A stretch of DNA of 64,000 nt from positions 1 through 64,000 of IMG/VR virus record IMGVR_UViG_3300037467_003067; one strand, written 5' to 3'. A program made the translations under genes and the position numbers. Source of the stretch: a virus (Duplodnaviria > Caudoviricetes). Below are positions 1,726 to 64,000 of the stretch, one piece after another. Every line of letters starts with the position of its first letter. The first letter of the stretch is position 1. The notes under the pieces were generated by a model, which saw nothing but the letters and a program-made list of their open reading frames with translations, was not told the origin of the DNA and ran no database searches.

Positions 1726-2169
1726 TTAGATTGTCACTCTCGGGTCAGATGTGTTGAATATCCCTTCTTTGACGTGATATACAACCTGTCCCTCCCGGTC
1801 GGCAAATTCAGCTTCCGTGTACCAATCGTCGGGGACTCGGGGCAATCCTTGAGATGGACTTATCATACCATAAGAAGCCCCTGGTTTGTAGACAAAAAAT
1901 TGATTGCGAGCGAATGGCAATCGCCCTTCCCAGCCGGTCCCATTGTTCATCACAAGTCTTTCCCAAGGTATATTGATTAATTCTTGTGTGTTGGGATCTC
2001 TGTACTCCCCTTGGGGGTGATAGATCTCGAACTTGGGATCGATGTAGGCGATAGTGAGCGACACGGGGAACCCTCGGGCATCTGGCAAGGTGATCTTCAT
2101 GGATGGTCTGAGGGCGAGGTGGGGCATCTCCATCAGCAACCATTCTTTAAAATTTAATTCTATACTCAT
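1726..2169 (-). CDS. Hypothetical protein, candidate internal head protein
   Basis: 147-aa ORF; N-terminal NFKEWLLME motif; upstream CTAAATAA. Confidence 0.7.
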   Translation of the reverse strand: MSIELNFKEWLLMEMPHLALRPSMKITLPDARGFPVSLTIAYIDPKFEIYHPQGEYRDPNTQELINIPWERLVMNNGTGWEGRLPFARNQFFVYKPGASYGMISPSQGLPRVPDDWYTEAEFADREGQVVYHVKEGIFNTSDPRVTI

Positions 2170-2423
2170 ACATTTTCCAATTGCGTGGAATTTCCCTGGG
2201 ATACCACTTATTTAGGGCTGTCGGCGTCTTTTAGTGGGAAAAACTAATTTGAGAAAATTCTGAGATTTGGGGTTGTACGATCAACAAGGGGTTTGCTAAT
2301 TTGTCGCCGTGGCTTTGAGAAAAGGTTTTGAAACCCAATCATGAGGAGGACGTTACAGGTTGATCTTTAATGGATTGGAAGGACCGATCCATCTTGTTTT
2401 ACAACGAGGGAGCAGTGACATCA

Positions 2424-3080
2424 ATGTACGGCGTTCTTCTTCTAACGCTTTTTGCGCAAACCCCTTCCCCAAAACCCGTCGACCTCCAGCAAGAGTTGCT
2501 CGATCGTCTTCGCAAAGTGGAGGCGAGACTCGATCAGTTGACGAAGCAGAATGAATCCCCTTCGCAGGAAAATCAAAAACCCGCTGATCCTCCAAAAACT
2601 GCAGCGGCGAAACCTCCTGCCGAGCAACTCTCAGACCTTCACAGCGTCTTGATCCGGCGAACCGATGGACGCACGATTCAGTGCAATGCCCGCAAAGTTC
2701 TCCAGGGACATCCTACCCGCATCGGCAAGTGGGTGGTGTACCAAGAGATCAGGTCCGATCCTTGGGGCTTCTTGAACTGGCTCAACAATGTGCGGATTCG
2801 CGCCGGTCTAGCCTTGGTTCGGTATGATGCCAATCTCTCGGCATGGGCAGCCCTCAACAATCCTCCCCAACTTGCTGCTGGCGCGTCGGGGCATCACGTG
2901 AATCCTAATGCCTGGCAAGTCGCCTTCTTCGGTCCTACGAACGCCGTAGACGCCGGTAACGGCTTCCTCGCCAGTCCAGGACACGCATCGGTCTTGCTCG
3001 ATCCTGCCATCACCACGGTAGGGATTGCGGCTTCCGCCGATAGTCGCGGCTGGGCTTGGACTGTCAATGCCTTGAGGTAA
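2424..3080 (+). CDS. Secreted CAP/SCP-domain protein
   Basis: Signal-like MYGVLLLTLFAQ after GAGGGAG RBS; LNNVRIRAGL...LSAWA...SPGHASVLLDPAITTVGIA. Confidence 0.75.
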   Translation: MYGVLLLTLFAQTPSPKPVDLQQELLDRLRKVEARLDQLTKQNESPSQENQKPADPPKTAAAKPPAEQLSDLHSVLIRRTDGRTIQCNARKVLQGHPTRIGKWVVYQEIRSDPWGFLNWLNNVRIRAGLALVRYDANLSAWAALNNPPQLAAGASGHHVNPNAWQVAFFGPTNAVDAGNGFLASPGHASVLLDPAITTVGIAASADSRGWAWTVNALR

Positions 3081-3102
3081 ATGGATATCTCCAGGCAATT
3101 CA

Positions 3103-62600: not shown

Positions 62601-63459
62601 ATATACTTATAACTCGAATCTCGGCGAAATCGACGACGCTCTTTATTTCCGCAACAAGCTCTACATCGCGTTGAACTTCCCCAAAAACTACTTTAATCAG
62701 GAAGACAGCGCCCAGACCCGGATCACCCTCTCGGCTCAGGACGTGAGGTTTGCGAGAAGCATCGAACGACTCCAGAGCGCCTTCGAATACGGACTCCAGG
62801 AGATGGTCACAAGACATCTTTATCTCATGGGTTTCCCCGAGGAAAGCTATGACGAACTGAAAGTCAGAATGACCCCGCCGTCCGACTGGCGTGAACTGAG
62901 TCGGGCCGAAGTCGATAGCAATCGCCTCAACAAGGCGACCACCCTCAAGAGTTCGCAGCTTTATTCGGATTTTGATATATACGTCAAAGTCTTCGACATG
63001 ACCGAAGACGAGGCGAGGGAGATCCAGTCACGAATGAAGGTTCAGAAGATGGACGACCTGAGAATTCAGATTATCGCCAACAATCCGCAAATCATGGGTG
63101 TCGGATTGCCAGGCGATGGAGAAACGGAACTCGGCACCGAGGCTGGAGGTCCCGCTCCCGACTTGATGCCCCCCGATGGTGGTGGAATGCCTCCGGGAGC
63201 TCCGCCGGGTCCAGGTGGATCGCCTATGGGACCGGGGGGAGGTCCACCCCAAGGCATGACGAAGTACATGTCGGCTGATGGAGGACCAGACCAGGCACAG
63301 GGGCAACAACAGCAATCGCAAGACCCCAATCAGGGACAGGAAAGTTCGCCCCCACCGTTGCCCGATGCGTCCGAAGACGATATAAGGAAGTATCACATGG
63401 GGATCGAGGACTACGCCTCCGAACAGGACGCCGAAGACATCGATTATAGCGAACTCTAA
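59602..63459 (+). CDS. Portal protein (T4 gp20-like) with two inteins
   Basis: [49 protein letters not shown]; about 634 aa after splicing. Confidence 0.95.
   Translation: [1285 protein letters not shown]
59917..60609 (+). mobile_element. Portal intein 1 (231 aa; HTH retained, no intact HNH)
   Basis: CVAGDT...CTPDH...IMHN/C. Confidence 0.9.
61354..62613 (+). mobile_element. Portal intein 2 (420 aa) with HNH endonuclease
   Basis: CLALDT...CTPDH...[11 protein letters not shown].PNNL...YTYN/S; AT-rich. Confidence 0.92.
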
Positions 63460-63480
63460 GAACAAGAAAGAGGACACAGA

Positions 63481-64000
63481 ATGAATTTTTCAGATTGGCT
63501 TCAAGTCGAAGAAAGACAACTTTATTTTGATTTCATGAAGATTCCTTCTGTGTCCTTGTTGGAGATCAAGCAGCGGAAGTTGTTCGGTCCCGTCTACCAC
63601 GGAACCAATGAAGAAAACCGCCAGAAGATCGGCGATACAGGATTTAACACCTATATCGGTGACGCCAGAACCGGTCCCGTTGCTAACGGTTATGTTCTTA
63701 CGAACTACGTGAATAACATCCCGCCACCAATTCATCATCTGGGGTTCGGCATCTACTTCACTACCAGCAAGACAAATGGGAAAAAGTATGCCCACAACAA
63801 ATCGACCGGATTGATCGAATGCTATATCGATGCCCCAAGACTCGAAACCATTAACTTCGGTGCCAAGAACACGATGATGAAATGGTGGATCGAGAATGGT
63901 TACGACATGAGACCGGTCAAGAATTTCTCTGACCCTCAAGTTGCAGCCGAACGCCTCGAAGCCACGATCAACATGACCAATGTACTGAAAAGCAAATACG
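63481..64000 (+). CDS. ADP-ribosyltransferase-like protein (truncated by the window end)
   Basis: Open to the end of the window; MNFSDWLQVEE...VYHGT...LGFGIYFT...KKYA (H-Y type ART motifs); AGAGGA RBS. Confidence 0.7.
   Translation, partial: MNFSDWLQVEERQLYFDFMKIPSVSLLEIKQRKLFGPVYHGTNEENRQKIGDTGFNTYIGDARTGPVANGYVLTNYVNNIPPPIHHLGFGIYFTTSKTNGKKYAHNKSTGLIECYIDAPRLETINFGAKNTMMKWWIENGYDMRPVKNFSDPQVAAERLEATINMTNVLKSKY

Follow-up and report, generated by a model that had tools for sequence, protein, structure and literature searches.

What do otherwise unrelated phage proteins gain from beginning with the same short aromatic peptide? This question is raised by the window analysed here, a stretch of 64,000 nucleotides (nt) that corresponds to bases 1-64000 of the 298,603-bp virus record IMGVR_UViG_3300037467_003067, whose completeness is about 59%. 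A first-pass annotation noticed that eight genes of the window share such an N-terminal tag, likened it to the capsid-targeting sequence (CTS) of phage T4, and proposed that the tagged proteins are loaded into the head, trimmed by a gp21-type protease and injected as a counter-defence payload. We consider it likely that an aromatic helix directs these proteins into the head and that a gp21-type protease trims them, and our verdict is that this lineage would use a variant of the T4 CTS on a large scale.

All eight open reading frames (ORFs) are found where they had been placed (lengths in amino acids, aa; letters with numbers are tag residues):

1726..2169, minus strand: tagged protein of unknown function, 147 aa; tag at residues 7-14 with F7, W10 and L12-x-E14; TAAATA at 2209-2214.
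3935..5467, minus strand: tagged class II tRNA nucleotidyltransferase (CCA-type), 510 aa; F9, Y12, L15-x-E17; TAAATA at 5521-5526.
8529..9143, plus strand: tagged protein of unknown function, 204 aa; F4, Y7, V12-x-E14.
9155..9661, plus strand: conserved 168-aa protein with the targeting half of the tag only; F7 and F10 invariant, no [LIV]-x-E.
42216..43955, plus strand: tagged acidic, Pro-rich protein, 579 aa; F4, Y7, L9-x-E11; TAAATA at 42205-42210, 11 nt before the ATG.
49443..49643, plus strand: tagged 66-aa mini-protein with a basic C-terminal tail; F4, W7, K-L-E12; TATATA at 49431-49436.
58386..58970, plus strand: 2H phosphoesterase with a degenerate tag; HxT motifs at H64 and H140; F3, F6, I11-x-E13.
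63481..64000, plus strand, ending at genome position 64497: tagged PARP-like ADP-ribosyltransferase (ART), ART-PolyVal-related, 338 aa; F3, W6, V9-x-E11.

Every member matches [STN]-F-x-[EDNR]-[WYF] within residues 2-11, and hence the core F-x-x-[WFY]. The second half of the described pattern, [LIV]-x-E within 10 residues of the motif, stands in six of the eight (the Glu being E14, E17, E14, E11, E13 and E11 in the order above), but not in 49443, where only K-L-E12 lies nearby and the first canonical site is at E18, nor in 9155, which has none. The 9155 tag is fused into a conserved helix, and this protein may be a weaker, uncleaved member of the set.

Is the motif more frequent than chance would make it? 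Among the 348 genes called with our own script over the whole record, 12 N-termini carry the strict form, where internal windows would predict 0.32 (p 2e-15), and it stands at none of 1386 internal Met residues. Two thousand column-wise shuffles that keep the N-terminal composition gave 1.0 on average and at most 7. The motif is confined to the reading frame (30, 2 and 1 occurrences in frames 0, 1 and 2) and its Phe is encoded freely (22 TTC, 20 TTT), from which it follows that the tag acts as a peptide and not as a DNA or RNA signal; a nucleotide-level origin was rejected on these frame and codon tests. Read more loosely, about 46 of some 350 genes (about one in eight) carry the tag, dispersed over the record, with one sixth of them in the window; this list was partly picked by hand, and a 47th tagged gene lies at genome 141630-141947. 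Only three homologous pairs exist among the 46 proteins, whose length has a median of 165 aa and a maximum of 675 aa (12 of them are longer than 300 aa), and several of which have a net charge below -20. None contains a membrane segment, as opposed to 32 of the 302 other proteins. The distance from the initial Met to the tag varies from 2 to 8 residues, and the second aromatic is preferably Trp. [LIV]-x-E follows 17 of 45 N-terminal copies of F-x-x-[WFY] but only 30 of 310 internal copies (p 6e-6). Database gene calls often begin at a Met after the tag.

Tag-like stretches also exist inside proteins, at residues 17-24 of the window gene 37576-37893 and, comparably, in an ORF at 544812-545360 of the uncultured 595-kb phage record LR756511. 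Internal tag repeats were looked for in the scaffold and core proteins and were not found.

The same record, LR756511, is the nearest in the phage collection (capsid identity 74.6%, with cultured phages below about 43%) and served for replication. A matrix built from the present phage and applied blind to it returned 43 ORFs of at least 8 bits, of which 23 have a late box at -8 to -16, compared with 38 of 1023 low-scoring ORFs (p 1e-19); [LIV]-x-E was likewise enriched (20/96 vs 56/681, p 4e-4). Conversely, with a matrix trained on LR756511 alone, seven of the eight window genes rank 34th or better among 348, and the 2H enzyme is the weakest at rank 64. The tag is retained in eight of nine orthologue pairs, the 2H orthologue having a degenerate tag at most, and LR756511 has a similar tagged basic mini-ORF at the place matching 49443 (by position, not by BLAST). 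In the relative L203, the orthologues of 1726..2169 and 8529..9143 both keep their tags. As for the origin of the record, identical proteins were seen on a 585-kb contig, and the DNA datasets carrying the CCA gene are soil and rhizosphere metagenomes; no RNA dataset is listed as carrying that gene.

The tag travels independently of the proteins that bear it. Within the CCA family, long phage homologues begin with it in 74 of 87 cases and short ones in 4 of 33; over 45 N-termini its Phe is invariant and its Glu conserved in at least 90%, with a linker of unconstrained length behind it. In the tree of 2H homologues it is scattered over 18 of 65 members with 13 changes, and a single tagged clade is rejected (approximately unbiased test, p-AU 8e-4), although the starred branches alone force just two changes and the counts rest on a regular expression that misses degenerate forms. 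The 2H tag often stands directly before what appears to be an old start Met. One ART body bears many different leaders according to lineage, about half of them with [LIV]-x-E, and the HAD_SAK_1 phosphatase is tagged in LR756511 and untagged here. On these comparisons, the same enzyme bodies acquire, drop and exchange tags. One claim of the first-pass annotation is borne out: the peptide is an add-on ahead of the catalytic fold (a low-confidence helix outside the fold in the 2H and ART models, a variable linker in the CCA enzyme). A check that it called for, on cellular homologues, also favours the tag: the 2H homologues encoded on cellular-genome contigs, nine distinct ones, mostly situated inside long multi-domain ORFs, all lack it. 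Among other phages, F-type tags are few or absent in XacN1, phiM12, S-PM2, immuto and Lu11, and S-CRM01 has a few. In Lu11, three adjacent genes, gp211-213 (L179:7-3258), begin with another leader in common, M-[KR]-I-Q-L-A-V-A, which lacks a Glu; one of the products is ART-like and another is homologous to tagged cargo of the present phage.

The expression signals upstream of the tagged genes suggest late synthesis. As had been noticed, several members are preceded by a late-type TA(A/T)ATA box, found within 60 nt upstream of four of the eight window genes. Record-wide, its position peaks at 10-13 nt before the ATG (for instance at window 42205-42218 and 49431-49445), and among genes with free upstream DNA it lies at -9 to -15 in 8 of 24 tagged and 6 of 185 other genes (p 2e-5). 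A box this near the ATG implies that the late mRNAs would be leaderless or nearly so.

The machinery that would read the tag lies next to the window. Downstream of the portal gene, genome positions 66202-71282 encode a 626-aa core protein, a gp21 protease at 68105-68872, a gp22-like scaffold and a gp23 capsid protein, the head genes being typed by PHROG 207/138 and the portal by PF07230. The capsid site matching the T4 gp23 cut at E65 retains [LIM]-x-E in 19 of 20 relatives, and the core protein and scaffold hold 15 [LI]-x-E each, against about six in shuffles; the gp21-type protease probably shares the Glu-site preference of its T4 counterpart. Both in this phage and in relatives, the head operon includes a tagged gene, and the portal gene lies between the 2H and ART genes. 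The 626-aa protein itself (genome 66202-68082; L001:7202-9082), situated between portal and gp21, is conserved in 41 viral loci, matches no family and is rich in [LI]-x-E; it is a probable undescribed prohead core protein.

Are such proteins found in virions? Two cultured giant phages bear on this point. The Ralstonia phage RsoM2USA has 13 ORFs of at least 10 bits; ORF89 and ORF132, which carry the same F-x-x-F-L tag and rank 6 and 3 of 479 by an independent matrix, are among its 10 virion bands that were identified by tandem mass spectrometry coupled to liquid chromatography (PMC8504454). Their masses agree with those published, and two tagged proteins among 10 bands has p of about 0.03. ORF132 is homologous to the tagged genes 112835 (E 3e-25) and 246178 of the present record. 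In the Agrobacterium phage Atu_ph07, gp394 (18 virion peptides) and gp377 (6 peptides) bear a sister tag and are homologous to three of the tagged proteins here (PMC6102473, Table S5); gp381, tagged and with an ART-like YHG start, is also present in virions, and the CCA enzyme of this phage is both untagged and missing from the virion list. The top label-blind N-terminal motif of Atu_ph07, W-x-x-L-x-E, occurs in 13 proteins, all in virions, from just two families. A widened form finds 22 of 26 proteins (10 of 14 families) in virions, against 106 of 692 (p 6e-6). Because same-tagged or related proteins of these two phages are present in purified particles, the present phage probably carries dozens of proteins, among them tRNA-repair and ADP-ribosylating enzymes.

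The mechanism that we propose runs as follows. First, late genes under the TA(A/T)ATA box would yield soluble proteins, in which the opening 10-17 residues fold into a short amphipathic helix, and two aromatics three apart would dock this helix on the prohead core, the docking partner being our assumption. Second, a gp21-type protease would cut after [LIV]-x-E, and the body would stay within the head. The tag would work as a portable address that unrelated genes can acquire or lose, and the load would be mixed, comprising core or structural proteins and enzymes (CCA-type, 2H, at least one ART, three weaker ART-like proteins, a kinase, a S-adenosylmethionine (SAM) decarboxylase and a methyltransferase). 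Finally, part of this load would probably be ejected with the DNA, the targets of the enzymes being putative. The T4 precedent is close, given that the first ten residues of the internal protein (Ip) IpIII are enough for packaging, that its residues 4 and 7 target whereas residues 8 and 10 direct processing, and that Asp at position 10 blocks cutting while targeting is kept (PMC9026906). Head module, cut-site motif, late box, modularity and related virion proteins all speak for a T4-like targeting tag with gp21 trimming, as first suggested; the label of a counter-defence payload is only partly upheld.

Several points weigh against this account. The present phage's matrix, applied to 269 T4 ORFs, ranks gene 61.1 first and IpI third, but IpIII only 39th and IpII 77th, because both have Tyr at position 4. 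T4 cargo consists of a few small basic proteins, whereas the tagged proteins here reach 675 aa, are often acidic, include recognisable enzymes and come from dispersed genes. About 40% of them lack a canonical [LIV]-x-E. A gp55 late sigma factor was not found in the 59%-complete record (BLAST with T4 and Atu_ph07 proteins, Sigma70_r4). The RsoM2USA list is small, with just 10 bands and 2 of the 13 high-scoring ORFs seen, and 'ORF438' and 'ORF257' were excluded, as their published masses fit other ORFs. For Atu_ph07, the 140 entries of Table S5 (PMC6102473) were assigned to ORFs by mass, the stock was purified with polyethylene glycol, the widened regular expression was picked after the virion list had been inspected, and the bare F-x-x-[WFY] is not enriched in virions (4/46). 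Mass-spectrometry lists, moreover, show association with the particle and not head location or trimming. A predicted complex between the gp22-like scaffold and the CCA tag scored 0.00 and counts neither for nor against.

Could the tag serve another purpose? Of the other explanations, the one that survives best, which we regard as unlikely, accepts that the core or protease reads the tag but holds that it chiefly governs the location or timing of late proteins within the producing cell, by activating them, destroying them or bringing them together at assembly sites, most tagged enzymes working late there and not reaching the next host. The 2H enzyme, for example, could remove signals where gp21 activity triggers the cyclic-oligonucleotide-based anti-phage signalling system (CBASS). 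Such a role fits the late boxes, the position of the 2H and ART genes on either side of the portal, the activation of CBASS by T4 gp21 late in infection (PMC12991175) and the low RsoM2USA count among the 10 bands analysed, but it is at odds with the virion content of Atu_ph07, where sister-tagged proteins are mostly present with many peptides (22/26), and with the T4 CTS, which by itself suffices for packaging.

According to a second explanation, the tag is a retained plug that holds proteins on the virion, at the capsid inner face, the outer surface or the tail, with neither cleavage nor ejection. We find this improbable: the Glu at the predicted cut is conserved in at least 90% of CCA homologues and precedes a linker of free length, the [LIV]-x-E enrichment repeats in a second genome, and intracellular enzymes make little sense on the outside, even though the mass-spectrometry data give no protein location, 9155 and about 40% of the tagged proteins lack [LIV]-x-E, and Lu11 homologues bear a tag without Glu. 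We give still less credence to an amphipathic helix that would address the host membrane, or a chaperone or modifying enzyme of host or phage, unrelated to head assembly. The helix is indeed modelled apart from the enzyme fold and the record does encode a ClpP, yet the flanks are acidic, the tag fits the T4 CTS, tagged homologues are present in virions, and no gene for a partner enzyme clusters with the dispersed tagged genes. A translation-start bias on leaderless late mRNAs, or chance, is hardly credible despite a late box often merely 10-13 nt before the ATG, considering the frame counts, the free synonymous codons, the survival of the motif in composition-keeping shuffles, the lack of general enrichment at T4 N-termini (3 vs 2.5 expected) and the conservation of the tag amino acids over 45 CCA homologues.

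If head loading is taken as the working explanation, what would the cargo do? The enzyme identities given at first reading stand at family level: a class II tRNA nucleotidyltransferase, a 2H phosphoesterase and a PARP-like ART. The CCA enzyme has its motifs intact (GGxVRD at 102, DxD at 116-118, RRD at 209, EDxxR at 258), a full flexible loop and no poly(A)-polymerase signature; every NCBIfam match falls under its cut-off, so that the enzyme may add either CCA or A. Its pairing with the neighbouring HAD_SAK_1 phosphatase gene is preserved in relatives, and by gene neighbourhood the enzyme is in an RNA-repair context.

The 2H enzyme was called Acb1-like, which we do not uphold: its match to Pfam Acb1 (PF23474) reaches 21.7 bits, under the cut-off of 27, its matches to 2_5_RNA_ligase2 and TIGR02258 are stronger, and Foldseek places Acb1 22nd, behind CPDase, LigT and Usb1. 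Its predicted structure (mean confidence, pLDDT, of 90) is nearer to these three (template-modelling score, TM, about 0.6) than to Acb1 (TM 0.43/0.58). Both HxT motifs are intact, H64 and H140 being invariant, many homologues carry a precomputed PF23474 match, and a sequence search against the PDB returned nothing. A role in tRNA-end healing may be at least as likely as anti-CBASS activity.

In the ART, for which a PARP-like fold is predicted, H40 and Y92 are invariant and all listed Foldseek matches are PARP domains (E about 1e-4, with low TM since only part aligns). By our reading of the alignment, the third motif holds an invariant Gln191 (with Asp188) where H-Y-E enzymes have their catalytic Glu. 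No tblastn match to it was found in the phage collection. Beyond the window, three weaker ART-like proteins are tagged, as are a SAM decarboxylase, a P-loop kinase and a methyltransferase, and most tagged proteins match no family. The tagged SAM decarboxylase (genome 106232-106651; L003:11232-11651) could serve polyamine supply or SAM depletion.

For the five uncharacterised members, which had been put forward as anti-defence or takeover effectors, we found no evidence of such roles. Searches gave no Pfam, PHROG, NCBIfam or usable Atlas match for 1726, 8529, 9155, 42216 and 49443 where made, and homologue searches with 42216..43955 found none. The basic tail of 49443, the acidic, Pro-rich composition of 42216 and the helix-fused tag of 9155, which has no cut site, suggest that these three may resemble core or structural proteins more than effectors. 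Tagged mini-ORFs with basic tails also occur at genome 277748-277942 (L013:12748-12942) and 166038-166190 (L006:19038-19190); the former resembles the mature capsid N-arm (BLAST to the Atu_ph07 capsid, E 0.001), as T4 61.1 does.

A wider proposal is that T4-like jumbo phages use interchangeable, lineage-specific tags to load and inject tens of enzymes, and that this clade delivers a kit for tRNA 3'-end repair, made up of the CCA enzyme, the 2H cyclic phosphodiesterase, a P-loop kinase and, in one relative, the HAD_SAK phosphatase, together with several ARTs that act before phage transcription; we hold it tentatively, as a possibility more doubtful than probable. If it were true, the injected proteome of any such phage would be readable from N-terminal sequence, and a packaged tRNA-repair enzyme would mean that tRNA-cutting defences are pre-empted by protein instead of early genes. 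More generally, should the tag work as in T4, a ten-residue pattern would predict the particle-borne genes among the hundreds left unannotated in huge uncultured phages, providing a short list of candidates for first-minute host takeover and anti-defence. The question can be tested now, as RsoM2USA (same tag, at least 13 proteins) and Atu_ph07 (sister tag) are both cultured. Larger heads with a simple loading tag would also be of interest for protein delivery.

The remaining window features provide the genomic context:

3144..3782, minus strand: HAD_SAK_1 RNA-repair phosphatase (Pfam PF10307, E 6e-15), adjoining the CCA gene, untagged.
56246..58042, plus strand: T4-type large terminase.
59602..63459, plus strand: T4-type portal (gp20, PF07230) carrying an intein with an HNH domain; the head module begins with it.

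The portal is 1285 aa long here and 857 aa in LR756511. At window 425-6149, ClpP, a histidine phosphatase, HAD_SAK_1, the CCA enzyme and a formyltransferase form a cluster, in a gene order conserved in relative L203. At window 44007-45520, a Sir2 gene adjoins an OGFr-like gene, both without tag, possibly forming an NAD/ADP-ribose module.

How does the tag compare with systems already described? Head-packaged ART and 2H domains co-injected with DNA have been proposed, on the strength of fusions and gene context, for T4 Alt and for MuF-fused and polyvalent-protein effectors (Iyer et al. 2021, PMC7824862; 2022, PMC9503650), and giant multi-domain proteins were found to include homologues of both the 2H enzyme and the 63481 ART. 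Those effectors are fused to MuF or portal or to a large polyprotein, whereas here stand-alone enzymes bear a short peptide label. The anti-CBASS protein Acb1 (T4 gp57B) has in common with our 2H enzyme the 2H fold and two HxT motifs, the latter enzyme lying under the Pfam cut-off. T4 gene 57B (L019:7953-8411), which adjoins ipI, encodes Phe4 and Phe7 as in the CTS, without L-x-E; at 0.35 bits, this may be chance. In phiKZ and SPN3US, ejection proteins form a large internal load that is processed after Glu by a prohead protease (PMC5694885, PMC7411985); these phages belong to another head lineage, and the abstracts describe no short shared F-x-x-W leader. T4 Ip1-3 are GmrSD inhibitors (PMC12373910); no homology was found between T4 Ip proteins and the tagged proteins, which do not have the profile of small basic inhibitors. 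The CTS, and its use for spotting Ip genes in T-even phages, is already known; in the open-access papers searched, we found no description of genome-wide CTS-like tags in jumbo phages or of a packaged CCA enzyme.

The closest parallel is the CTS of IpI, IpII and IpIII (Mullaney and Black 1996; PMC9026906, PMC3012670). Both consist of a common leader, about 10 residues long in T4, on unrelated bodies, with aromatics three apart, [LI]-x-E downstream and a gp20/21/22/23 module. They differ in scale: three genes are tagged in T4, and about 46 in the 299 kb of this 59%-complete record.

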